From Neophaeotheca triangularis (Eukaryota): a stretch of DNA of 64,000 bases. Location: NCBI GenBank assembly GCA_054600435.1, contig BAAIJX010000024.1, forward strand, positions 1 to 64,000, read 5' to 3'. Below the pieces are notes generated by a model. The model made no database searches, was not told the DNA's origin, and worked only from the letters and a program-made list of their open reading frames with translations. Each line of letters opens with the position of its first letter. The first letter of the stretch is position 1. Positions 1 to 46,928 of the stretch are shown here, piece by piece. The translations under genes were made by a program, and so were the position numbers.

Positions 1-168
1 CCCCCCTGAAATCAAAAAAAAAAAACACTCCACGCTATGCTCCCAAACGCCCATCCTCCAAAATTCCTCCCATCCTTAAAGACTCCTCTCTAAATCTGTC
101 CAAAGGTCAAACCCTGAGAAAGAAGATCACCATTCCAGTCTGTGCCACCCCACCACCAATCATCTGCC

Positions 169-1198
169 CTAATACTTGCGCCACGGTGGGTGGTAATGCT
201 TGTCAAGAATCTCCTCAAACACACTTGTTGCATCCCATGGCCCAGGTGCAACCCCACTGGTGTTGCGCGCGAACCACCTAACCGGGTCCTTGTAGAACGA
301 GGTATTTCGGTCCTCGTAGTCGTGTACTTCGTGTTCGTCGCCATGATTACGACCGACCCACTTCTGGTAGGCAGAAGACTCTGTGCATAGGCGGGATTTC
401 TCGAGGCGTTTGCTGTATCGGAAATTCTTCAATTCTGTGCTTCTTGGCTCTTGGATGACCCCGGTGTTGATTTTGCAAAAGCGCCACGCTGTAGCAAGCC
501 TTTCGCAGACCACCTCGTCGTCCAAGTTGAAGGGGACTTTCGGGTCGTCTTCGTCGTAAGCTTTCCAAATTTCGTCGTCTTCCCACAAGCCCCAAAAACT
601 GCCTTCTTCAGGGCCGTCGGTATTAAGGTGCCTGGTCCACTCCTTTCGGTCTGTCGCATTCTTTTGATATACCGCGGCCAAGAAGCTCCTGTACGCATCG
701 ATGGTCGTCTCTTTCCCGTCAAAAGCAAGCCACGTGCCATTCGAGCTCTGCCATTTCTCGTCAAACTTAAGCTTCGGGTTGATAAAGGTGATTTCATTCG
801 CCCAGTTTGGTTGTTTGATGGCAGCTTTCTGCAGAGATTGATCGATCATGTCTTCGCGGACGCACTTGATGCCTGCGCCACCTGGATACCCCAAAAGGAC
901 AGAGACATCTGGGTTTGTCGTGACATGTCCGACCACGACAAACTTCTTCGCTGGAGTTCTTTTGTCCTTTCCATAGATGGAGCGCACCTCGAGATCCGGG
1001 ATGACGGACATGTGGACTCCTAGACCGTCTTGGCCAGTGTACTTGTGAATGTCGTCATGTCGCTTGACTCTTTTGGATGGTCGTTTCACAAAATCGAATG
1101 GGTAGACTAAGGCGAGCGGTTAGTTAGACATGGAAAAGTAGATTTTTTGTTTTGCTTGCGCATCACCTACTCTCGTCGGATGCTTTACGCTTCGCCAT
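169..1198 (-). CDS. Orphan protein A (~320 aa, basic NLS-like N-terminus), 2 exons
   Basis: ATG at 1198 (MAKRKASDE). Intron 1107-1170 (GTAGGT...CTAAC...TTAG) splices in frame into the 306-aa ORF 169..1089 (IYPFDFVKRPSKRVKRH...). No family recognised. Confidence 0.75.
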
Positions 1199-1310
1199 TT
1201 TCGGGATAAATCTTCTCCAATTGGGCTGATATGTAGTTTGACTACAGTCAAGTCAAACTCATTAGCCCTCGGAGTTGGTGAGATTTCGGTGGGACCGGAG
1301 GAGGAAGCTC

Positions 1311-1583
1311 GGAGGGTGGAGGGTGGGGGAGGGGGAGGGTGGAGGGTTGGTGTGTTGTAAGGAAGAGAGAGAGAGAGAAGAGAGAAGATATAAGAGTACC
1401 GTTTCCACTAGCGCGCCAAGACTAAGGGGTCTGAGTGAAGCGTGAGGGAGGGTGGAGGGTGGAGGAGGGGGAGGGTGGAGGGGTTGGTGTGTTGTAAGGA
1501 AGAGAGAGAGAGAGAGAGAGAAGAGAGAAGAGATAAGAGTACCATTTCCACTAGCGCGCCAAGACTAAGGGGTCTGAGTGAAG
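1311..1583. repeat. Tandem duplication of a ~135-bp G-rich/(GA)n unit in the divergent promoter
   Basis: Two copies (~1311-1440 and ~1448-1583) share GGAGGGTGGAGGG...TTGGTGTGTTGTAAGGAAGAGAG...TTTCCACTAGCGCGCCAAGACTAAGGGGTCTGAGTGAAG. Confidence 0.95.
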
Positions 1584-1670
1584 GGTCGATATCTAGGCAC
1601 CGATATCGAAGGAACCAAATACTAGTACAAAAGGGTCGATATCTAGGCACCGATATAAAAGTAACCAAAC
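1581..1670. repeat. 50-bp-period tandem repeat carrying the dyad element
   Basis: AAGGGTCGATATCTAGGCACCGATAT at 1581 and again at 1631. Confidence 0.95.
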
Positions 1671-1756
1671 CGGTCTGTGCGAGTGGATGGAGCTTAGGTA
1701 TATAAACTTTCTCCCACGTACATGTTTCCTTCTAAACTACAAAACATACAACAACA

Positions 1757-2466
1757 ATGGCTGATACACGGTAAGTTGACTTGATTACTGGAAGTAGACG
1801 CCAATCAATACTAATAAGATTTGTAGCCATCAGAGGTACTTGGCCTCGCACAAGGATGTCCTCCACAAGTTAATCGCCACGAAACAAGCAATGGTCGATG
1901 TGCTCGCCCCCCTGGATAAATTGACGATTCAAGTCGGCAAGACCATCGACCGCTATGTCCAGTACATATCGCAAACCTCGTTTCAAACACCTGCCAATGC
2001 TATTCGGACTGTTGAGGATATTGTCGTCGTTACTCAAACGATGCCCGAGTTTTCCGAAGTATAGCTAGCGGATGTTTCTGACGCGATGATTATCATGCTC
2101 CACGGCCGCGCCAAATTCAAACCCTTTCTCGATTTGAACCGCATCAGGACAAGCGTCGAAATTCACACCTCCGCCATTAGAAGCCTCTATCGAGAAATGG
2201 CAGGTTACCACGAGGATTATGAGTTTGGGATGGATCTCGAACAGCGCTTGAACGATCCAGAAACGAACTTTGGCGGCATTGACAAAGTCAAGGGCATCTG
2301 GGGCAATGTGCAAGGTCGATTCCTCGAGCGTTGCGGGCGGTTTCTTGGTGCGCGCAAGAAGAATGTATACCTCCTCGTTGGTCGAGCTTTGACCACGTGC
2401 AGACGAGCTTCGAAATAGAACGAGTGCGGCGTCGATATCGGTGTAATTTGTAGTACTTCCAAATGA
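1757..2466 (+). pseudogene. Orphan gene B, interrupted by in-frame TAG codons
   Basis: ATG 1757, intron 1771-1826 (GTAAGT...CTAAT...TAG), then ORF 1840..2064. TAG at 2062-2064 is followed in the same frame by ORF 2086..2418, a second TAG at 2416-2418, and TGA at 2464-2466. Confidence 0.6.
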
Positions 2467-2553
2467 GGCTTCGATATCGTAGGAAGCACCAAAAGCATTA
2501 TACGTGAGCCGTGGGTCAAGATGAAACGCATGAATTGTAAGCAAGCCTATACC

Positions 2554-2755
2554 AAGTATACTTTGAGGTTATCTACGGTTTGAGAGCCTTACCCCCGATG
2601 ACATCTTCTCTCCCTCATCAGTAAGGCTCTCTCCCTCGTAACCTTCGCAATCACTAAGTATACTATGAGGTTATCTACGGTTTGAGAGCCTTACTCCCGA
2701 CGACATCTTCTCTCCTTCATCAGTAAGGCTCTCTCCCTTGTAACCTTCGCAATCA
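2554..2755. repeat. 102-bp tandem repeat (2 copies) with internal inverted repeat
   Basis: AAGTATACT(T/A)TGAGGTTATCTACGGTTTGAGAGCCTTAC...GTAAGGCTCTCTCCCT(C/T)GTAACCTTCGCAATCA occurs twice. The copies differ mostly by C/T transitions. Confidence 0.95.
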
Positions 2756-2820
2756 ACCATGTCTAGCTATACTCCCCCTCTACGGCACCCGACTTGGCCT
2801 TGTGTGCTCTACTTATCGGC

Positions 2821-3335
2821 TTAAAGACCTAGAGGTTTATTAGTTAGCAATATGATTCGGCAGCTTGTCTTGCTTTGCTATAATGAGTACTTACCAAAGA
2901 CGATTCGGGCTTGTCGGGCTACGGCTTGTGACGACAGGCCAAAAGCTTGGTCCATATCTTTGATCGCCTCAACAATCTCCTTCACATCGTCACCGATGGG
3001 GTTCCTTCTCACGTCGGAAGCTCCAGTGCTAGGTGACGCGGGCGAGGGAGCCGACACTGATGCATGATTTGGAGATCTGTGGCGGGTAGATTGTTGATTT
3101 TGCATGCTTTGATGTGGAAGATGGGTGGATGGCTGAGAGGACTGGCCCTCTGTTGGCTGATGGGTCCGTTGTCGATTTTGCATGCTTTGATGTGGAAGAT
3201 GGGTGGATGGCTGAGAGTACTGGCCCTGTGTTGGCTGATGGGTCCTCAATGGAGAAGGGAATGTGGGGGGCTGCCGAGCTTGCTGCTGCTGTGGTGGGGA
3301 ATACTGCGGCGGTGGAGTCTGATACTGCTGTAGAG

Positions 3336-3366
<31 letters not shown>

Positions 3367-3723
3367 TGGGTAGTGGTGAGGCTGTGGAGTCTGATACTGC
3401 GGCATCGACGGGGGATAGCCTGGTGGGTTTTGTTGCTGGTATGGACCTGGTGGTGGGCCATAGCTCGACGGGTATTGAGGATATCCGGGATTCATTGGTG
3501 GTGGGTAATGGCCTTGTGGAATTTGCTGCTGCATCGGCGGGGGATAGCCTGGTGGGTATTGTTGCTGGTATGGACCTGGTGGTGGGCCATAATTCGACGG
3601 GTGTTGAGGATATCCGGGATTCATTGGTGGTGGGTAATGGCCTTGTGGAATTTGCTGCTGCATCGGCGGGGGATAGCCTGGTGGGCTTTGCTGCTGGTTT
3701 GGGTAGCCGTTGTGAGGCTGCAT
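2821..3723 (-). CDS. Orphan protein C: Q/P/Y/G-rich low-complexity protein with internal repeats
   Basis: ATG 3723 (MQPHNGYPNQQQSPPGY). Contains 43-aa (129 bp) and 26-aa (78 bp) tandem repeats and a polyQ. Intron 2829-2894 (GTAAGT...GCTAAC...TAG), then GL-stop. Confidence 0.75.
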
Positions 3724-4117
3724 GGTGGGCGGTTTGTTGGTGGTCGGCTCGGAGGGCCGACGAGAGAGTTGTGAGTAGTAAGAAAGGAAGAGAGTGTTGA
3801 GCGGTCTCGAGAGCCAAAGATATAATTCGCTAGGTGGTCCGTGCACGGCGCGTTGCATCGATATCGACCTCACGCATGCATAAGCAGTTGCCTAATCGAC
3901 ACTAAGCCTAGCCGGGCCGCTAATACCGTCCATATCGAGAGCTTTAAGCTTCACTTCCATCTGGAGGGGTCGATATTGAGGCTTCGAAATCGACGTACGT
4001 GAAGAAGCTCGGACCAGGTGGCTCCCATAAAACTCCCCTCCTCTTCCTAAAGAATTCTTCTTCCTCTCATCATCCTCACCAACTCCTCCCTCTCCTCCCT
4101 CCATTCTCGCCACAAAC

Positions 4118-4582
4118 ATGGAGGAGCTCCCAGACATCGACTCGATGCGCCGCGACAGACACAGCATACAAGACGAGCTCGCCTTGAACTCCGAAGACTC
4201 CCTGCGCAAGCAATTCAGAGGCACTCTTGCTTTTGCGATCAATGCTCAACACGCCAACAACCCAGAAGTCGTCAAAAACCTGCAAAAGGACGCGGAAAAG
4301 ATGATACGCCCCCTGCGATCGATTCTGGATCGTCCCAGGCACGAAGTCGATGCTCATCACCCCGAGCTCCATGCTTTGGCCGAAGAAAAATTGGAGGCGG
4401 TGATGGCAGTGATGGACCAGAAAAATCACTTGGACGGCGCTCAAGCCAGGTACGATAAATGGGGCCGCTACATCGAAGCCTTGATGCAGCTGGATCCCGA
4501 CAAGCCAACGCCAGATCAGCAGCCGTCGCATCGCACTGAAGCGATGGGTGGGGCGGCAGATCCAGGAGGAGCAAGTTCTTGA
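4118..4582 (+). CDS. Orphan protein D (154 aa, helical-looking), possibly truncated
   Basis: AAC-ATG-G start after a CT-rich leader and CATAAAA box. A canonical intron (4592-4643) lies just downstream of the stop. Confidence 0.65.
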   Translation: MEELPDIDSMRRDRHSIQDELALNSEDSLRKQFRGTLAFAINAQHANNPEVVKNLQKDAEKMIRPLRSILDRPRHEVDAHHPELHALAEEKLEAVMAVMDQKNHLDGAQARYDKWGRYIEALMQLDPDKPTPDQQPSHRTEAMGGAADPGGASS

Positions 4583-5473
4583 CAGCAGTAGGTAAGCCCC
4601 ATCTCAAGACTTTCAAGGCGTTGTGCTGACCACATCTCGACAGAGAACGGAGATGCTCTGGGGGAGTCAGCTGGTGCCGAATGGTGGTGCTTTTTTGACC
4701 CTTGAAGAAAAGGAAGGAGGAAATGGCCCTCCGTGGGCAGCTGAAGTTCTCTAGACCTCTATGTAGTCCACATAGTCACGGAGAATACAGCAGAAGCACA
4801 GGATGAAGTCGCTGGAAGCCAAAGTATATCCCCAGACTCGAGTCAATGCACCGATGTCGGCAAGGCTCACGAGCATCCAATCAGAGCGTGGGCATGTCTC
4901 TTCCCTTTTGCCAGACAAACGACACCTTGATAGACCAACTTCTCGTCATAAATAACAGACACTTCCTTCTTCGCTGTCCGTGTGCATTCACCTCTCATCT
5001 CTTTGTCTACGGTGGATTCCATTCCAACGAGAAGACGCAGGTCTCCTGTCTCCATGAGGCTACGAAAGTCGAAGCTCGGGGCACGGGACAAATGACCTGA
5101 TTAGGCAAAAAGATGTCGTCCGATAGGGCGGCCCGCTCAGCTTGGCCAGCCTACTCCACTCGCATTGTCGCACTGGTTCAATGGCGATGATCTGGCAACA
5201 TGAGGTGACAGGGCAAGCATGGCCTGAAGGGCATACGAACTCCTGCAGCATCGAGCTCCCTGCGCTGCTCTCGACCTCCGCAATGGCCCCGCACCCACAT
5301 GACGAAGGCTCCAGCTTTGTAGGTTGAAAAGGACTGAAAAACCCCCCTTCCTCCTCTCTTATCGTTTTCCCCTCGCCATACACAACCAATCTCCCAGACT
5401 CAAACCGTACCTCCCAACTACACCACAACCACCGCCAACAACACAAACACCACCAACACAACCAACCACCAAC

Positions 5474-6043
5474 ATGTCTTCCGTCTCCCTCCACCCCATT
5501 ATCGACAATGGCTTCAAGAAAGGCGACGCCAACAAGGCCGGCGGCAAGCTCGCCTGCAAATGCCCCTCCCAAAGCCAGCGCGTAGTCGTCCAGCTCGGCT
5601 CGCAAGTCGCCCACAACCACGCCTGCGGCTGCTCCAAGTGCTGGAAGCCATCGGGCGCCCTCTTCTCCCTCGTCGCCGTCGTTCCCAAAGACAAAGTCTC
5701 CGTCGTCCAGAACGAGAACAAGCTGCGGGTCGTCGACCCCAGCGCCGCCATCCAGCGCCACGCCTGCTCCCAGTGCGGCGTCCACATGTACGGCCGCATC
5801 GAGAACAAGGACCACCCCTTTTACGGTCTCGACTTTGTCCACGTCGAGTTGAGCGATGAGGAGGGATGGCAGGAGCCGCAGTTTGCGGGCTTCTTGCCCA
5901 GCTTGGTGGAGAATGGAATGTCCGAGTCGAAGATGCCGGAGGTCAAGCAGGTCTTGTCGAAGAATGGACTCGAGGCTTACGACGCTTTGAGCCCGCCGTT
6001 GATGGATGTCATTGAGCAGGCTAGCAAGAAGCAGTCTAAGTGA
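5474..6043 (+). CDS. gfa: Glutathione-dependent formaldehyde-activating enzyme (S-hydroxymethylglutathione synthase)
   Basis: [57 protein letters not shown] are hallmark Gfa motifs. Confidence 0.93.
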
Positions 6044-8635
6044 GTGATGTTCGACGACGCATATGTCGTGTAATTTAGGTATCCTCGTTTTGTCGACACG
6101 GGGGCTAATGATTCAATTCAGGTTGTGATCTTCACGATCTTACCGAGTTGACGACGTTTTGCAAGCATTATGATGGATTCTGTAGCAACAGACTATGAAA
6201 ATGAAAAAAGTTAATTCAGATTGAGACCTTTGGAAGAGATGGTTATGACAAAGAGATGAGGACAATGAGCGTGTCAAATTAGATAGGGAGGAGCTTCGAT
6301 CATAAGTATGAATGATACCCATCATGGTAGATCTCATGTTCTCCACGACTCGTGCTGCCGTGGCACAAAGAACGGCTACCCTGACCTGACCAAGGATAGG
6401 GAGTGTGTTGCCAACCTCTCTGAAGTCTGCTCAATGCCACTTTCGCGGCCGCCGTCGAAGCTTGTCCCCAGCCCCATAGCATGCAGTAGTCGCTTTCGGT
6501 GCCCAAAAACGGTAGCTCCTCACCAAAAGCCCCCGTGCCACCGCTCCCAAAACCCAGCAACACCCTATTCCCTACCGTCGGACCATCTCACTGCCAGCGT
6601 AAGCCCACCCAACTGCTCTCGGAGACATTGCGTAGCTCAGTCTGCAAGAGAGAGAGGGAGAGAGAGGCATTTCTAGCACGCCCGAAGCGCCAACTTCGAC
6701 ACAAAAGCAGATTTCGAGAGCCAATGCCCAAGGCCTCGCTCGATCGTCCGAAGCAGGTACCTAGGTATTGCGCCTGGATTTGCTTGATGGTCTTCCGCTC
6801 CGGTGAGGGCTGCTAGCAAGATTCTGGGTGAGGCCGTCCTTCTTTGCTTTTCGATGATGGCAACTAAGGGATTGCTTTGGACTTCAACACAACGGTCGGG
6901 TTACGTCGTTTTTCGCACGGCTTTGCCAAAGGCTTTATGTTTGCTCTCAACCGAGTCTCACCAACGTTAGGCGTGGCCGGTCTTCTTCACCGTGAAGAGC
7001 AGTGGCTGGGGGTGAAGAGGGTGCAGAGACTGGCTTTGTCAGCGACAGCGTTGTAGGTGCGCCGAGGGTCTGTCTCGCGAGATTCGTTCTTCTGTCAAAC
7101 GTGGCTTCCTCGCTCATCTCCACACTTGTCTATCTGCATTTCTTCGATACAACAAGCCGACCACGGCTGCGAATCTGTAAAAAGCGCCGTGAAGCATGAA
7201 TGATTGATGCAGGTCCTGTGATGATCTAGGGCTGCAACGATGAAAGCCATGGCAAAGTCAAGTCACCAACGGGAGCGGAGATGCCAGGCGACTTGGCCAC
7301 GCCAGGATGTGCCTCAGATCTACTGTACAGCAATTGGATGCACACAATGATTACCGACACGTGAAACCCGAGATAAAGCCTACCTCCAACTGGACTACTG
7401 AAGCTTACTCCCAGACGCAGCACAACAACATTACAAGTATACATTTCGACATCAGGTGACCGTTGTCTAGAAGCATAACGCCTCCCTTATTCCCGCTGTA
7501 CCACTGGCTTAAGAGCTTAGCGAACCAATTGCGCTCTTCCAATCTCCCATATGTCCGTGGATGCTACCTCGATGTTTCGGGCGACGAAGCTCTTTTGGAT
7601 GGTGCGATCGTTTTCCAACTATACGTACTCTCTTTCCCCTCAGGATCAGCGGGAGTACGCCGTCGTGGATGTCTGGACTTGCCGGATCCGAGACTGGTGT
7701 CATGAGCTACATGCAGCAGCAGAGCATTAATGATACCAAATACCCTACGCCTGGGTTTTCTGTGAGATTGTAAAGCCCGTTAACGTAGGGCAGAGCCTAC
7801 TCCTAGTTAATGCCCAGGGACCAACAGCTGCCCACAAAACATGTGTCCCGTCTTCTCGACGTCTGCGATCTAACATTGCCTTGAGGTACATAGGTAAGTA
7901 GCCTTGGTTAGCCAACCCCACACTACCTTACCTTATCATGTGGACCAATCTGGCACCCTTCCCCAGATTTCCCCGCGTTCTTCTGCCACCACAACCTTAG
8001 CCAACTTAGCACTCCCTGGTTGTTATTCCTTTCAAAGCATCCGTGAAACTTGAGACATCGACAAGCCTTGGCCTTCTCATGATTCAAGTTCACGATATTC
8101 CAAGAATGGAAGATGCGCACAAACCTCCCCCTCTCAATCGTGATTCTACCCTGCGCAAATCACTTACCTAGCTTCCCGGTACATCCGCATCCAAGCTGCC
8201 GGGGAGACGCTTGCGTGTGGCTATCATCGAGGGGAAACGGGGGCGCGGTAGGTGCCGACCAACCGTAAAGTCGACTGTGGAGTGCATTAGGCCCGTCTTG
8301 GATAGCTCAAGGGTGCATTCGCGTCTTGACCAGACGTGTAGCTTGAGTTCAAGCATGGCAAAGGTGAGGAGAAGTCTTGATGGTCCTTGCAAGTGGCGTA
8401 CGACTCACCACTCATAGCTTTCGCTTCCTGTCGTCCAGGTAGACACGGCTTGATTTGAGTAGCGAGCTGCTCCAGGATCCCTCCTTTGGTCAAGTGCGGA
8501 GTCTCTTTGGTTGCTGATACTAAAAGGAGCTCTCCTCTCGTTGCACCGCGCTCATTCATTAGCCTCCTTGCCCAATCTCTCTTCCTGCATCTACTCGTTG
8601 CCATCAACCTCACATAACAGCCCTTAGCTTCCACA

Positions 8636-9843
8636 ATGGCAGAATATCGAGCGGCGCAGGAGAATACCAATCTGAGCGCAGGTGACCCTCAACTTGATGC
8701 ACCTCTGGAAAAGGACTTTAGCAACGGTGAGTGCAGGTTCTAGATATGCCACTGCTCCCTATTGCTTATTAGAAGCAACAGCTGAACACCACGAAGGCTA
8801 CCATCTCGACAATGACATGGACTCTGGAGCTGCGCTGAACCGGATACGAACGGCCGGCAGCATCAGCATCTCCCCCGAACTCTTTGAGAAGATCTATCTT
8901 TCACCTCACAACAAAGTCTCTGGAGATCTTCGAAAGACGTTTGGCAATCCGACGCCAATGTGAGTTCTGCGTTGATTGGCTTGAGCTCGAATGTTATCCT
9001 GACATGCTGGACAGCGCTCTCATCGGCTTCCTCATCTCCCTGACACCGCTCTCTTGTACTCTCATGGGCTGGCGGGGTGCGGCCGGTAACGGTGCTGCGA
9101 CCACAGGCGTGTACTTTTTCTTTGGCGGCGTATTGATGATCGCTGGTGCTCTCGGAGAGGTGAGGAGTGGCACGTTCTCATCTTGTCGTGATGATTGCTG
9201 ACACCATGAGTAGTGGATCATTGGCAACACATTCCCCTGCGTCGTCTTCGCTAGCTTTGGTGCCTTCTGGCTCTCGTTCGGTGCCACTCAGGTACCTTTC
9301 TACAACGCTTGGGGCGCATTCGCAGAAAATCCCGACACACCTTCAGGGCTTGCCACTGGCCTCGAGGACCCTGGATTCAACGCCAGTTTCGGTAAGTCGC
9401 TGTTCATTATGCCCTGCACCTCAGGCTGACACTGCCATCTCAGGCTTCTTGCACCTCTGGATGGGCTTCCTCTGCCTAATCTACATGATCTGCGCCCTCC
9501 GCACCAACCTCGTCTTCGTCGGCATCTTCGCGACCCTCGTACCCGCCTTTGGTTGTCTGGCTGGCGCCTACTGGCATCTCGCTCAAGGCAATGCGGACAC
9601 TGCTACCACGCTATTGGTCGCCGCCGGGGCTGTTTCGTTCATATCCGATTTGCTTGGATGGTGGATCTTCGCTGCGATCATGCTTGCGGCCCTCGACTTT
9701 CCATTCCAACTCCCCGGTAAGTCATCAAGGACCAGTGTTGACTTTGAATGTATTTGCTGACATGTGTCATAGTCGGCGATCTCTCCCGCTTTATCAAGGG
9801 TCACTCGGAGAAGCAGAAAGAGAAGGAGAGGTATAGCGCTTAG
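8636..9843 (+). CDS. GPR1/FUN34/YaaH-family (AlcS/Ato-like) membrane transporter, multi-exon
   Basis: ISISPELFEKIYLSP, LRKTFGNPTP, GNTFPCVVFASFGAFW, ALRTN, PVGDLS reconstructed across five introns. Confidence 0.9.
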
Positions 9844-10493: not shown

Positions 10494-11782
10494 ATGGACC
10501 TCACCGGCGATGATGATGACGAGGCCAACACCTACCAGCAAATTGTCAACGGGTACAAGGCTCAGCTCGTCAGGCTTCAAAGGCAAAAAGGCCAGTTCCT
10601 TGCGGAGAGGGCCAAACATGAAGCCGCCATGACCGAGGCCAGTACGAAAGCCGACGACTGTTCCCAAAGGATTGATCAAGTCCAAAAGCTTCTTCAAGAA
10701 GAGACTGAAGACCGTGCCCGTCAGGTAACAACTCCCATCGTACTATGACTGGGTCAAATACAATTTTACTGATTACTTTCTGACAGATCCAGACCAAGTC
10801 CGCCCGCCTGCGCCAAGTTAGCAGCACCCCCGACACCTCCCGGAGCAGCATTCGTCAAACTCCTGGTGAAACGCTCGCTGCCGGAGTGGAGAACGATCAG
10901 CGCGCCGAAGAGCAACCCGACGGCCAAACCCTCGTCTCCAACGACTTCATCACAAAGACTCACGCTCCTCGGCATTTCTTCGATCCGCTGCACGAGATTT
11001 CATCAGCCGTCGGACGCAATAGGATTTCAGTCGACTCCTTGCGTGATAGTACGGAGAGCATGTCGATGCCCCCGATCAACACCCGAGCCAAGCGTGATGC
11101 GCATGACATGCCCGAGGATACTGAACAGCCTGCGAAGAAACGCAAGTCCGACGGAAGCACGAGGGTGAAAAGCTTGAATAACGCCCACGCTCAGGCCACT
11201 ACTCAGGAAGATGAATACACGGTCCCAGATCATGGCCGCATTCCTGCGCGCTTCGGCGTACAAGATGCCGACGCAGATCAGGATCTTCACCAGCCAGGAA
11301 AGCAAACCTCAGGCAGCCTCAGACGCCGCAACTACAGCCACGCCAGCGCGTTCAACGACACTGCAGTGGACTCGACAAGGCCAACTCGGAATGATGAAGT
11401 CGAAGATCCCGATTTCGACCCGGACTCACTTAAAGAGAACGCAAGTTTGAATCTTCGTCGGAAAGGGAACTACGCCCCAAATCTTGGTTTTCGCAGGCCT
11501 GAGAGAGTGAACGCAAGATGGTATTGTACAGATTATCAGTGGGCAGCCTTGAGCGGCAGTATGAGGGAAGCACTTTCGCACGCTGGCAGGATGATGGAGG
11601 TCGAAGGGTACGGGGTGCTAGCCGATAAGCCCTGCAGCGCTTGCGAAGCCGAGGGCTGCGAATGCATCGTCTACCCGGTTGAGTACCAATTGAGAAATGG
11701 GCGGCGCTGTGCTCACTGCCGATACTCGACCAAATCGATCAAGAATCCGCGTTGTGAGTTTCCGGGAGACGAGAGGAAATGA
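10494..11782 (+). CDS. Hypothetical protein with N-terminal coiled coil and C-terminal divergent Zn2Cys6-like motif
   Basis: ORF 10494.. joins ORF 10886..11782 through an intron at ~10725-10786 (GTAACA...CTGACAG). C-terminal C-x2-C-x6-C-x14-C-x2-C-x11-C. Confidence 0.7.
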
Positions 11783-22530: not shown

Positions 22531-23805
22531 TCACCGTCCGCTAGGTGTGTGCGACCTATCCCGGTGCACAGTCGCCATGTGCCGGTCAAGGTGATCTTGC
22601 CGGGCGAAACCATTCTGGCCGACCTTGTCACAGCCCTGGAAAGGGCAAGCCATGAATAGAGGCGTCTGCGCTAGACGCTTCCGGTGTTGTTTCGATCTAA
22701 AGTGACGCTTTAGGTCTTTGTTCCAAATGAACTTCTTCTCGCACATTTCGCACTCGAATGGCTTATCCTCGTGGGAAACGTGGTTCCGTTCGTGGTGACG
22801 GAGATCGGCTCCGGTATTGAAGCCCCTGCCGCAAGAGGAGCAGCTATTACGCGAACGAGTGCTCGAGGCGCTACGACCGCGACTTCGATCTCTGCTGAGC
22901 GGATTGGAAAAGTTACTGATGCTTGAAGGGGACACGGTGTTGTTGGATGCGTGCCAGGAGTCATGCGAAGTGTCAGTGGTCCACGGAGAGTTTGCGGCCG
23001 TTGTGTCTAGAGGGCTCAGAAATGTGCGGTCTTGCGAGATGGGCACGCAGTTGGTGTCAAGCCGCGGCACACGTCCACGTCGGCGGCCACGTTCCGAATC
23101 CAGATGCGACAAGCTCATGCGATCTCTGCTGAAGACCTGCTGAATCTGCACGGGCTGTGGGCCCTCCGGTATGAGTACCGGCGGTGCTGGTATCTGCGGC
23201 GGACGGCGAGGTGGCTCAACGAAGTTCCGTGCTATGTGTGGATCGAAAGGCTGAGCTGCTCCGTGCATTCCCGGGTATTGTGCGGAAGGAGAAGCCTGGA
23301 AGAAGTGTCCAGGTGTACCATAGTGACGGCTTGTTTGTTGGGGGCTAGGTATGTACGGTGCAGCTGCAGGGTTCAGAGTCGTGGTCCGTCGGGGCGGAGG
23401 ACATGGTTGTTGGTCTTGCAACACTGCTTCGGTCATAAAAGGAGAATGAGAGGGGGAGGGCTCTTGCGTGGTCCCACTGAAGTCGATATACCGCTCCCAC
23501 TTCGGGCCATCAGTACTTTGAATCTCCTATACCGTAGCTCGAATGCAACGTACCTGAATATACTCGAGATCTAGTCCCATGGCCTCTGGCGGCGGTATGC
23601 TTGCATCCTGCGTTCCCGCCCATCCCCCGGGCGCGAAGACTCTGTCGTCCAGGCCATTCGGATCGGACATGAAGCTTTCAAACTCATGATCCTGGGCCAT
23701 GTCGGATATGGGGCCTTCATCGCTCGTCGACGCGATGAAGGCAGGGTCACCGGATGGCTGCGGGTGCGTGGTGCTGTCTCGCTGATTGTTCCGAGTAGTA
23801 TACAT
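22531..23805 (-). CDS. C2H2 zinc-finger transcription factor 1 (three C-terminal fingers)
   Basis: CSSC..HERNH, CEMC..HFRSKQH, CPFQGC..GFARQDHLDRHMATVH. Phase-0 intron 23500-23553. Start uncertain (23805 or 23700). Confidence 0.82.
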
Positions 23806-25474
23806 GCGAAGGAGCAAAGAGAGGCGAGATGGATTCAAGTAAGCAGTAGAGGAAGGTGGTGCTCAAGTGCGTGCTGTGTGTTTGCTTGTAAAAGGCTATG
23901 AGGATGGAGGAGATGGGAATGTAAGGAACCTACGTGGTATAGCAGATTGCGAATGCGAAAGAAGAAATGCTATGGGTACTCGACGGCCGTTTTGTAGGCT
24001 TCGTAGGCTGCGCGGCCTCAATAATGAGCGAGCAGCAGCATGACGGGTGCCATACAGCTCCCATCAGCTCTCGTGTGCACAGCGGTGCTAGCTCCAGGAA
24101 CCACAGGGGGCTTCGCCACAACTGGACGTGGACCTGCAGGTGTACTACGGAAGGATTCGTGCATGTTGGCCGCAATTAGTGAGAAGTGTGCTGAATTGAA
24201 GCCACACCATGGAGCTTCCAAGAGTGAAGTGCCATTGAAGTAGCTACTACGAGGTGAAGTTTGAAAAGAGTTAGATACTAGGTAGAGAGACGTTTCACCT
24301 TTGTTGACTTCCCGTCCCGAACGGGCAAGGCAAGGCAAGGGCCCGCAATAAGTTAACGGCGAACCACACTCCAACCCCTACTTACCTCCTAGACCTCACC
24401 TCTCTTTGTCCATCCATTCACTATTCTTCACTACTCACCAAACTACACGCAACCACCGTGTCTACCTAACTCTCACTACCACTTGGCCGTCGTCACTCAG
24501 CCTTTCAACAGTAGCGACAAAGTCCACCTACCTTGTTACGACCACAACCAAAGACCTTGGGGAGGGCCCAGAATACATACTATGGTACTTATGGCAGGCA
24601 AATTCAGCTCTCAGGCAACCGACGAATCAGACACTATCAGTCTTCTTGGACGAGCAGCTACCTTGGGTACAGTCGACTCGACATCGGCCACAAGACGGGA
24701 GAGCCACGTCACGTTTTCTACGATTCAAGAGCAGCATCGCATCCGTATGAAAAGGCATGTGCTCGAGTAATGCGCTAACTCATGCAGAAGGTGTTGGCTA
24801 TTCGTATCAACCAACTTGCTGCGCCCGCTTTTACTGGCTCTCTTCCACATCCATGTCTACCTCGAGTCCCGCTAAAACAGCAACAGATCCCGAGCTTCCC
24901 GAGATAACATACTGCTGCGCTGCATTATTGGGCTGCCGCGAGAGCTGACTGTCAACCATCAATTGACGCGTTTCAAGTTACGAAGGCTGCAGCAACCGGA
25001 CCATCTGCCTGGTCGCTGGACAGACGAATGGATTAACCTCTCTTTCCGGTAGGTAGTCCGGTCCCTCGCAACCAACACAAGCCAAGTCGTCCGAGACTAT
25101 GCAACCATTGTTCGGTTATTGTTTGCTACTCAGGATTTCAAAATACTGCTCGTGCTCCAGATCAGGCATGGCGGTATCTCCAAAGTTAGCTGTTCTGTGC
25201 TCATATTCACAAACGCTGTAGCACATGAGCAGCGCGGCCGGGGAACCGTACCGGAGTTGCACGAGAGAAACATGAAGCGCGTGGCACTTTTTTTCAGAAC
25301 CCACTCGGGAGGAAGTCGTTGATTACGCTAACATACATTGAGGGTATCTTCTCGAGAGACTGGCTGCAGCCCCCTTCTCCGCCACATTCAGGCCCAGAAA
25401 GCAACGCAAACTCCTTGTCAAAGCCAAGTCCACCCCCTTACTCAGTCCGCCTGCGCTGTACCGCTCTGCTATCG

Positions 25475-26804
25475 TCACGAATAAATGGTCCGCGAAGAAG
25501 CCGAACTCGACACGGAAGTAGAAGAGGCTCCGTGTGTGTGTGCCAAGTGCCTTTGCAGATGATCGAGCCGGCCGAATCCTTCAGTTGCTCGCGGACAGTC
25601 GGTGATCTCACAACGATATTTCGATGACATGTCCTTGATGTGTATTGTGGATACATGCCTATCACGCTCGCGCGGCATGTTAAACCGCTGTTGGCAAAAT
25701 TCGCAGCCGTGCTTGCGTTGCGCAGGATCACCATGGCAGCGCTTCACATGCTTGTGGAGTGCCGACTGGCTGCTGAACTTGGAGTGGCATTTCTCACTCT
25801 GTGTGCACGGGAAAGGATCGTTGGAGTCTTTCATTTCCTCCTGTGTGCGCCGCGGGCGTTTCCCTGACGATCGCATAGACAGCGGCGCAACAGGATGCGT
25901 GGATCGACGCTTTGAAGTACCAGGTGAAGTCGGTACGACCTGCCCATGCACACCCAAAGCTTCAACACGAGACGGCGTGGCCCCGAGCCATATAGTAGGG
26001 CTTGTAGGATTGTCCACATCTCTCTGGTGGTTGACGCCAACGGGCATCGTGGGGCTAGGCCTTCCTGTTTCGACGTTCACCCGAGACCTATTTCGCTGTT
26101 CTGCGGCGAGGGCTTGCTGTGCCTGTAGAGTCGACATGCTGAGCGCAAGGCAGTCCTGCTGGAACTGCAAGGTCCACTGCGCACCCACGTCCGGTGAGGG
26201 ATGGATGGACAGGTAGTGTCTCTGGGGCGTGGGTGCCCGTTGCGTCGAGGCGGTCAGTCCGATCTGACTGGACGATGATGGCCTTGGATAAGCATTGCCA
26301 AACGCGGGTGCTTGCCGGGCGACGCTAGCATAGCTGAGACCGAGCCTAGTTGGCGGTGCATCCTGCGCTCTTGGAGAATGCACAGAAGGAACGGGCGACA
26401 GCAAGGTAGGAGTTTGTGGTTGCGGCTGTGGCTGGTATGGACTGCGCTGAGGACGACCGGCAAGTGTTCGATTGTTATTCCCCGGCCGCCCTTGCGTTTG
26501 AGTGTCCTGCGTCTCTGCTCTTTCACCACGCGCTCCATGTAGGACGAGCACAGGGTAAGGTACCGGCGTAACAAGTCGTGGAGACTGGTAGGTGTAGGCT
26601 CGGAGGCAATGGGGACACCCGTCCGGAGGTCCGTACGGGTACGGACACCCTTCACGATGCCCGGAAACGATCTTTGCACAGTCGTGTCAGCTCTACCCGC
26701 CGTCGTCTTTTTTGATTGAAGCTAGAACCTACAACAGGCTGTTCATCTGAATAGGGAAAGGCATCCTCAAATTGGGCTCCGACGCCCGGGAGCTCTGAAT
26801 CCAT
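25475..26804 (-). CDS. C2H2 zinc-finger transcription factor 2 (three C-terminal fingers)
   Basis: ATG 26804 (MDSELPGV), phase-0 intron 26672-26732. Fingers CTQSEKC..HVKRCH, CEFC..HVSTIH, CEITDC..GFGRLDHLQRHLAHTH. Confidence 0.82.
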
Positions 26805-46182: not shown

Positions 46183-46462
46183 CCAATCCAATTCAATCCA
46201 ATCCAATCCAATAGCGGCACACGGCGTGCACGCAATACCGAGGTCTTGGTAGAGTAGATCAGGGGGGGTTTGAGTCAGTGAGTCTACTCTAACTTATCTG
46301 TAGGTAAGGTACGTACCGTTGTCGGGTGTTGGTCACTATCTGGGAATAGGTACTCTACTACTACAGTGTTCCTCATAGTAGCTGTATAGTAGCTGTATAG
46401 TAGCTGTAATCAAATTACCTTACCTACTACCTATCGACTGACTTGACTTTATGTTGTTATTG

Positions 46463-46515
<53 letters not shown>

Positions 46516-46928
46516 CTTATCATCATTGTTATCAGGATATTAACAAGGTACTAACTGTAGATGACGGCAAAGACCCCAAACTGTCCAGTCCCCCGCCCGA
46601 GATGGTGCCATGAAACGGCGGTGTCGATAAAGGCTAGTAGTAGGAGATCAGTGGACCTCACCGATTCTTCCTTTCCTTTCATCCTCCCTGCTACCTGCCT
46701 GCCTTTCATCCTCATCTCGCGCTATTATCATTATTATCATTATTATCATTATTAACCTTTTACCTCGGGCAAATCCTGCCTCGCCTTCTATCAATATCTA
46801 CCTAACTTATAATTATTACTATCTGCTCCTGCAATAATCCAATAGTGCAATTCCCAACTGCAGAGATCCACAGTAGTAGGTACTTCGTCCGCTCCACCGT
46901 CCACCGTCCACCGTCCACCGTCCACCGC
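46183..46928. repeat. Microsatellite cluster: (CCAAT)n, (TAGTAGCTGTA)x3, (TTA/TCA)n, (TCCACCG)x5
   Basis: Visible at ~46183-46212, ~46376-46408, ~46452-46531, ~46724-46754 and ~46893-46927. Confidence 0.9.

Follow-up and report, generated by a model that had tools for sequence, protein, structure and literature searches.

An array of divergent gene pairs with a locus-private palindromic promoter design in the black yeast Neophaeotheca triangularis

Described fungal loci that resemble the array

In the aflatoxin gene cluster, the regulator AflR binds TCGN5CGA in every promoter (PMC4329819). We analyzed the first 64 kb of contig C24 (C24:1-64000; hereafter, the window) in a 25.4-Mb assembly of 136 contigs from Neophaeotheca triangularis and found at its left edge one half of an array of four divergent gene pairs, whose shared, palindrome-based promoter design is private to this locus. 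The array is like the aflatoxin cluster in its linked unrelated genes and in the palindrome of TCG/CGA half-sites in every promoter (PMC4329819); as in an aflatoxin-type cluster, the same palindrome occurs in all of its promoters and is rare elsewhere. It differs in its spacer, which has four bases (ATAT) and not five, in its products, which look nuclear, in that half of its genes are dead, and in that domain searches found neither a biosynthetic backbone enzyme nor a Zn2Cys6 regulator gene in it. In its probable mode of action the array resembles a privately regulated cluster, although its content is nonmetabolic and unstable.

In shape, the nearest described locus is the doc-1/doc-2/doc-3 allorecognition locus of Neurospora, which spans about 14 kb and shares with the array lineage-restricted hypothetical genes, duplications, deletions, and rearranged haplotypes (PMC4831770). 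The doc genes are paralogues of 830-920 amino acids (aa), two of them with transmembrane segments (PMC4831770), whereas the array genes are small, unrelated, and devoid of such segments. Besides, the array haplotypes are only about 4% apart, and the structural haplotypes and raised divergence present at the block are modest compared with doc. Starships, whose defining parts are a captain of the DUF3435 type, direct repeats, and cargo, are like the array in low copy number, accessory orphan genes, and strain variation (PMC11162782). We found no description of the locus or of its motif in the open-access literature, a scope outside which most subscription papers and preprint supplements fall. 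The fungal meiotic drivers Spok, rfk-1/rsk, wtf, and tdk1 are small, fast-evolving intracellular orphans with pseudogenized neighbors and haplotype turnover, as in the array; however, no sequence similarity to them was detected in the array, and its partner genes are not fixed across the inferred haplotypes.

We read the array as a resident, single-copy, co-regulated, high-turnover, nonmetabolic cluster, most likely with a role in nuclear genetic conflict. The architecture and co-regulation are the probable part of this reading; taken whole, with the conflict role, it is tentative and has somewhat less than an even chance of being right. Co-regulated clusters with private palindromes are known in fungi mainly for metabolism, and the design would be seen in a novel context if it served a chromatin ATPase together with orphan proteins, whose gene bodies are swapped while the promoters in front of them stay conserved. 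The locus would also offer a compact, testable case of orphan genes gaining regulation and turning over. If drive or discrimination is true, it would be a candidate conflict locus for black yeasts, and if its evolution is neutral, it is still a clear example of promoter-first cluster growth.

A palindromic promoter design private to the locus

The left boundary of the window is the contig end, and the block therefore lies at a contig edge. The end itself (poly-C/poly-A, 1-22) appears to join the right end of contig C45, where SNF2(-)/E(+), GH53(-), and F(-)/G(+) are found along with promoters P1 and P2 (C45:178,613-187,208). The C45 right end and the C24 left end are both poly-C, and the last 60 nucleotides (nt) of C45 have 13 exact bases in common with the loose end that run X2, from a second strain, shows left of window position 23; the 4 other contig ends tried (of about 270) have 1-8 bases in common with it. 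We take C45 and C24 to be adjacent from this match of end sequences; no read spanning the two was seen. C45 was reached through a genome-wide search for a symmetric-dyad regulon, which was itself at chance level (7 sites versus 8 in the control) and was rejected; one of the 7 sites, near the C45 end, fell within a promoter built in the same way.

The gene order across the join is a C2H2 gene that we take to be creA-like, an aldolase II gene, SNF2(-) P1 E(+), GH53(-), F(-) P2 G(+), the join, A(-) P3 B(+), C(-) P4 D(+), and gfa. The original prediction, made from the window alone, had described a cassette of four genes, A(-)/B(+) and C(-)/D(+); both pairs are present, and with two more on C45 the whole array comprises four divergent pairs over ~13.4 kb, from C45:178,613 to window position 4780, flanked by ordinary host genes. 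Its four bidirectional promoters, P1 to P4, are all co-oriented. Between E and F, the array also encloses a GH53 galactanase gene (C45:182,441-183,671). The first ordinary host gene at the right, in the flank outside the array, is gfa (5474-6043, +; PF04828, E 2e-11), and the right flank also holds an acetate transporter gene, ERG28, and MTHFR. The practical right edge of the variable block is at 4785-4814, where two haplotype paths of X2 rejoin.

The three dyads of the original prediction are real, at 1586, 1636, and 3970, and a pattern derived from them matches only these 3 places in the genome. Each dyad is made up of two copies, set 14 bp apart, of the basic unit, which is a palindrome of 10 bp, TCRATATYGA. 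Its perfect form occurs 7 times in 15,209 nt of array versus 0 times in 149,284 nt of background; at ≤1 mismatch there are 22 sites in the array and 22 in the background, and 19 of the 22 array sites fall in five intergenic clumps. Nine copies with ≤1 mismatch lie in window 1-5400, the further units being at 1600, 2432, 2471, 3858, 3929, and 3984. As a hold-out, TCGATAT[CT], defined on the window alone, was found 9 times in 8.7 kb of C45 versus 0.75 expected (P 1e-7), which bears out the earlier proposal of a shared promoter layout and shows it to be private to this locus. All eight genome matches of the tandem form also lie here (control, 0), the informative part being the absence elsewhere in the genome, as the pattern was built from these promoters.

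Other elements recur as well. TTATATCY is present exactly once per promoter (4 in the 15-kb array versus 1 in 149 kb of background); in P3 it is the TTATATCTT box on the minus strand at 1385-1393, which reads AAGATATAA on the plus strand. AAGATATAA is found at 1385 and 3817 and AAGGAAGAGAG at 1359, 1496, and 3784, and neither occurs in the other 59 kb of the window. These boxes and the TATA-like sites (TATAAA at 1701 and CATAAA at 4026) had been correctly recognized; of the two purine tracts reported with them, the one at ~3784 stands, the other is at 1359 and not ~1349, an error of 10 nt, and the copy at 1496 is additional.

P3 (1199-1756) holds tandem duplications of 143 bp (1311-1583) and 50 bp (1581-1669), and its palindrome units (1586-1659) lie at 1586, 1600, and 1636, with a degenerate one at 1650 and a 14-bp period. 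P4 (3724-4117) contains AAGGAAGAGAG at 3784, AAGATATAA at 3817, units at 3858, 3929, 3970, and 3984, and CATAAA at 4026. In both P1 and P3, a GGT/GA-rich block of 120-140 bp is repeated in tandem; outside the shared elements, the promoters align poorly with one another. Four short DNA matches elsewhere in the genome were GGA/GGT tracts only, and metagenome pattern scans gave 172 and 264 matches, none of which was confirmed. Five tandem duplications (143, 50, 102, 78, and 129 bp) lie in the window block, as had been noted, and the two halves of the array have 4 and 2 duplication blocks versus 0 in window 5001-64000.

Two more units, at 2432-2480, stand where B and C converge, between the 3' ends of the two genes, in a stretch that aligns with 3927-4002 in P4 and of which X2 lacks 2438-2473; the pair at 2432 and 2471 is probably the remnant of a fifth promoter. 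After the 102-bp tandem duplication (2554-2755; one copy only in X2), an ATG in good context opens a 21-codon frame at 2759-2824 (+), which may be the stub of the plus gene of that promoter.

We propose that one bidirectional promoter cassette was copied in tandem to give the array of four promoters, and that one homodimeric factor would bind TCG-ATAT-CGA and switch on all eight genes together, its sites being multiplied by the small duplications. By analogy, TCG-N4-CGA here against the TCG-N5-CGA of AflR, the putative factor may be Zn2Cys6-like. We infer both the co-expression and the function of the array genes. The nearest Zn2Cys6 open reading frame (ORF) is about 20 kb left of the array. 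An orphan ORF of 330 aa at 10784-11782 (+), 6 kb from the array, has a C-terminal cysteine cluster with weak Zn_clus/DUF3716 matches (E 0.13 and 0.23) and is a remote candidate for the palindrome binder.

Gene content, copy number, and mobility

The SNF2 gene of C45 is an intact, intronless ORF of 859 aa (SNF2-related, E 5.6e-42; helicase C, E 1.1e-12; PF00176 + PF00271), in which 7 of the 7 helicase motifs tested (motifs I-VI) are present. Judged by its sequence, it is a clear member of the SNF2-family ATPases, whose intact motifs it shares; it differs from them in having no introns and in its distance from all solved relatives (115 bits for the best match to a solved structure), and a motif suggests that it may be Rad5/16-like.

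E and G have early stops, and F, which encodes internal helical repeats (0 of 300 shuffles), is damaged by repeat-induced point mutation (RIP), with 9 of 9 stops being TAA or TAG and an index of up to 6.2. At the 3' end of F, an array of ~44-bp tandem repeats (C45:184,900-185,430) is nearly devoid of CpA/TpG and has a composite RIP index of 6.2. The RIP-type stops claimed for the window are weak by comparison: B has one TAG, the composite index over window 1-5000 is -1.5 to +0.22, and RIP is not evident in the window block. RIP is a mark of the sexual cycle, and its presence in F therefore implies such a cycle in a black yeast thought to reproduce mostly clonally. A 299-nt fragment at C58:14101-14405, between what we take to be an F-box-like ORF and a DSBA-like gene, has 89% identity with the 5' part of the F coding sequence; 14 of its 27 substitutions are C>T or G>A toward the C45 copy, and no palindrome motif lies nearby.

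As had been reported of genes A to D, none could be recognized, and none has a Pfam family at cut-off. Gene A (169-1198, -), with its ATG at 1198, an intron at 1170-1107, and its stop at 169, encodes 321 aa with a basic N terminus. The spliced product is on record as P0005, with the source label Neophaeotheca triangularis (black yeast), and has one near-identical relative, P0001 (91%). The segment at window 349-400 (residues about 260-280) is hypervariable, the window, P0001, and the X2 loose end differing three ways between nearly identical flanks. The search for distant homologues covered A, and B at near length only. It gave one distant match to A among 1.84 billion representatives (E 3.7e-4), and a profile search then gave 8 clusters, 20-28% like A and 63-92% like each other in the best local matches, of which 7 include a member labeled Hortaea werneckii. 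Since its homologues in another genus are at 20-28% identity, A is old. A fold predicted from a 14-row alignment (mean pLDDT, a per-residue confidence score, 41.7; 31 from the single sequence) places a small barrel at residues 46-99, with Z about 3 (best 3.5) to Tudor, SH3-like, and KOW domains, and an SH3/Tudor-like barrel is a lead only, of low confidence. No structure match to this weak model was obtained at E≤0.001, which shows neither a new fold nor an absence of relatives.

Gene B (1757-2418, +) has an intron at 1771-1826, an in-frame TAG at 2062-2064, and a body at 1849-2340; its protein search found only B itself (its own 3' part). Gene C (2821-3723, -; intron at 2894-2829) encodes 278 aa, with in-frame 129-bp and 78-bp duplications, and is of low complexity (23% P and 21% Q; 44% P+Q) with a short helical C terminus. 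Gene D (4118-4582, +) encodes an acidic and probably helical protein of 154 aa, and its X2 allele has 186 more bases at 4575/4576. Downstream of its stop, within 4583-4755, come CAG CAG TAG, a GTAAGC donor, and what could well be an intron of 54 nt reaching 4644; these remains and the extra X2 bases suggest that D was once longer.

Neither A, the Hortaea homologues of A, B, C, D, nor F obtained an identity from Pfam, PDB sequences, PHROGs, or the ESM Atlas (Atlas rows <0.9 or from a poor model). HET, NACHT/NLR, HeLo, and doc-like domains were absent from A to D and F at the Pfam cut-off, and the same five proteins have no strongly hydrophobic 19-residue stretch (maximum, 1.03). Paralogy between the pairs was rejected, as the B-D score was reached by 357 of 1000 shuffles and that of A-C by 183 of 1000; B-F was borderline (43 of 2000), the P0003-F score was reached by 14 of 2000 over 26 residues, and a family profile gave no confirmation. 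At the level detectable by such comparison, the eight array genes are unrelated and not paralogues.

The original prediction had further proposed that the block is or was multicopy and might be the end of a Starship or an integrated virus-like element. DNA comparison shows one copy of each half of the array, and protein comparison shows one copy each of A, B, and D, with a source-run depth of 101-128 over most of the window block; the first proposal is not supported. Over 45 kb to the left (C45:142.3-187.2 kb) and 30 kb to the right (window 1-30 kb), not one of the 83 ORFs with ≥165 aa had a recombinase or transposase domain, DUF3435 included, at E≤0.001, although a heavily split or RIP-ruined captain could escape; the 45 kb left of the window, where such a mobility gene had been suspected, are included. 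No long terminal repeats were found; short ones could be judged only against an empty site. X2, the one informative strain of the 3 non-source runs (window 1-9000 compared), carries the block beside gfa, with content that differs, and shows no joint that would mark an empty site. With no captain found, no boundary repeats identified, and no empty site seen in that one strain, the array appears to depart from Starships. As to viruses, PHROG gave 0 matches for 6 of 7 proteins and only generic helicase matches for SNF2; capsid, packaging, polymerase, and Rep genes and viral loci were not found, nor was a fold match at E≤0.001 with the weak model. On the tests made, the array does not belong with Starships, with viruses, or with any known family of drivers, and the mobile status suggested for it is not supported.

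An alternative is that the array is what remains of a mobile or virus-like element that carried cargo and has since decayed and lost its captain; the palindrome would then be the element's own regulon or a subterminal binding array. The locus-private motif, the intronless and divergent SNF2 gene, the orphans and pseudogenes, the RIP in F, and the F copy on C58 would all fit such an origin. We consider it unlikely, given 75 kb of sequence without a recombinase or transposase domain, the single copy, the lack of an empty-site joint in X2, the lack of viral relatives found, and the canonical spliceosomal introns in A, B, and C. Furthermore, the RIP of F peaks on the local 44-bp tandem array, which would explain it without a second copy, and the C58 fragment has no motif nearby.

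Strain variation and the turnover of gene bodies

Four runs were compared over window 1-9000, of which X1 is possibly the source. X2 reaches all 30 bins; X3, with 4 low-depth pieces, and X4, with gfa alone, leave the block uncovered, and their gaps prove nothing. The X2 contig depths form two groups, near 65-75 and 100-150, which we interpret as two haplotypes. One path joins A-B-C-D to the gfa flank, without the 143- and 102-bp duplications and with the 186 extra bases in D. The other runs from the first 17 codons of D in frame into B at 1849 (joint 4168>1849) and then from B at 2340 to 4785, between which other letters may lie. B and P4 are covered at double depth, A and the C and D bodies at single depth; from these joints and this pattern, it follows that the B body can sit behind P4. 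The toxin/antidote pairs entertained in the original prediction are thus doubtful as fixed pairs, since the B body, by the contig joints, is the partner of A in one haplotype, whereas in the other it follows the C/D promoter.

The palindromes might instead be recombination sites of an integron- or WHO-like cassette-shuffling or homing system that stacks unrelated cassettes. The 8-8-8 arm-spacer-arm geometry at 1586 and 3970, the units between converging genes, the unrelated genes in co-oriented modules, and two X2 indels (2437>2474 and 3871>3925) that end in or within 4 nt of units point in that direction. The main difficulty is that the B/D breakpoints (4168/1849 and 2340/4785) miss the palindromes; they fall within coding sequence or past it, and 2 and 0 bases are shared there. 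Unit number and spacing also vary as in binding-site clusters, and no recombinase is nearby among the 83 ORFs, so that we hold this explanation to be very improbable. In the resident, co-regulated cluster that we prefer, coding sequences behind the promoters would be swapped, gained, and lost, with exchange by illegitimate recombination.

Between X2 and the window, 84 of 2115 sites differ in the block (4.0%) versus 44 of 2484 in the flank (1.8%; P 8e-6), in the longest listed records, and the description of a fast-evolving orphan block is supported. In A, whose frame remains open, there are 22 nonsynonymous and 5 synonymous differences (27 single-nucleotide polymorphisms among 40 of 349 rows), giving a ratio of nonsynonymous to synonymous change (pN/pS) of 1.12; on the 27 listed, strong purifying selection (an omega of ≤0.3) is rejected at P 0.003.

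The intact products would act within the cell, probably on chromatin, to judge from the SNF2 ATPase, A with its basic N terminus and possible Tudor/SH3-like barrel, and the P/Q-rich C. The most likely cause of the turnover would be a genetic conflict that arises when cells fuse or during sex, in the form of drive, suppression of drive, or recognition of non-self. Conflict fits better than metabolism because an old gene shows amino-acid-biased change, a spare chromatin ATPase is present, neighbors are dead, and RIP has occurred. In a bolder version, the locus would be a self-contained, chromatin-acting selfish element with a private regulon, whose promoter cassette, spreading in tandem at a single site, recruits interchangeable gene bodies like a cassette array of eukaryotes, and whose SNF2 protein and Tudor-like A bias transmission or recognize non-self nuclei; this strikes us as distinctly unlikely.

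Several observations weigh against a co-regulated conflict cluster. Four of the eight array genes are broken (B, E, F, and G; SNF2, A, C, and D are intact), the host-type GH53 gene sits within the array without a palindrome clump, and the two units between converging 3' ends are outside any promoter. No DNA-binding domain was found in the array proteins, which leaves the palindrome-binding factor putative. Only one other strain, X2, covers the block, as contigs. The pN/pS of A fits plain loss of constraint no less well than diversifying selection (P 0.52 versus omega 1, on the 27 polymorphisms listed), and its Tudor-like match has a Z of just 3.3 on a poor model.

The broken genes and a pN/pS of about 1 in A would suit a neutral "orphan nursery," in which slippage in an unstable region has multiplied a strong bidirectional promoter, and the genes that follow it drift and decay with no role in common. 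The concentration of duplication blocks in the array and the unrelatedness of its genes, B-D and A-C scoring no better than shuffles, would follow too. We regard this as unlikely: A is old, with homologues in another genus, the 859-aa SNF2 protein retains all motifs, and the palindromes have been retained while the surrounding promoter sequence barely aligns.

Rfam gave no match. Farther along the window, two adjacent C2H2 zinc-finger ORFs with long low-complexity N termini lie at 22531-26686 (-), and AT-rich short tandem repeats (CCAAT, TTA, and TCCACCG; GC 0.44) occupy 46183-46927.

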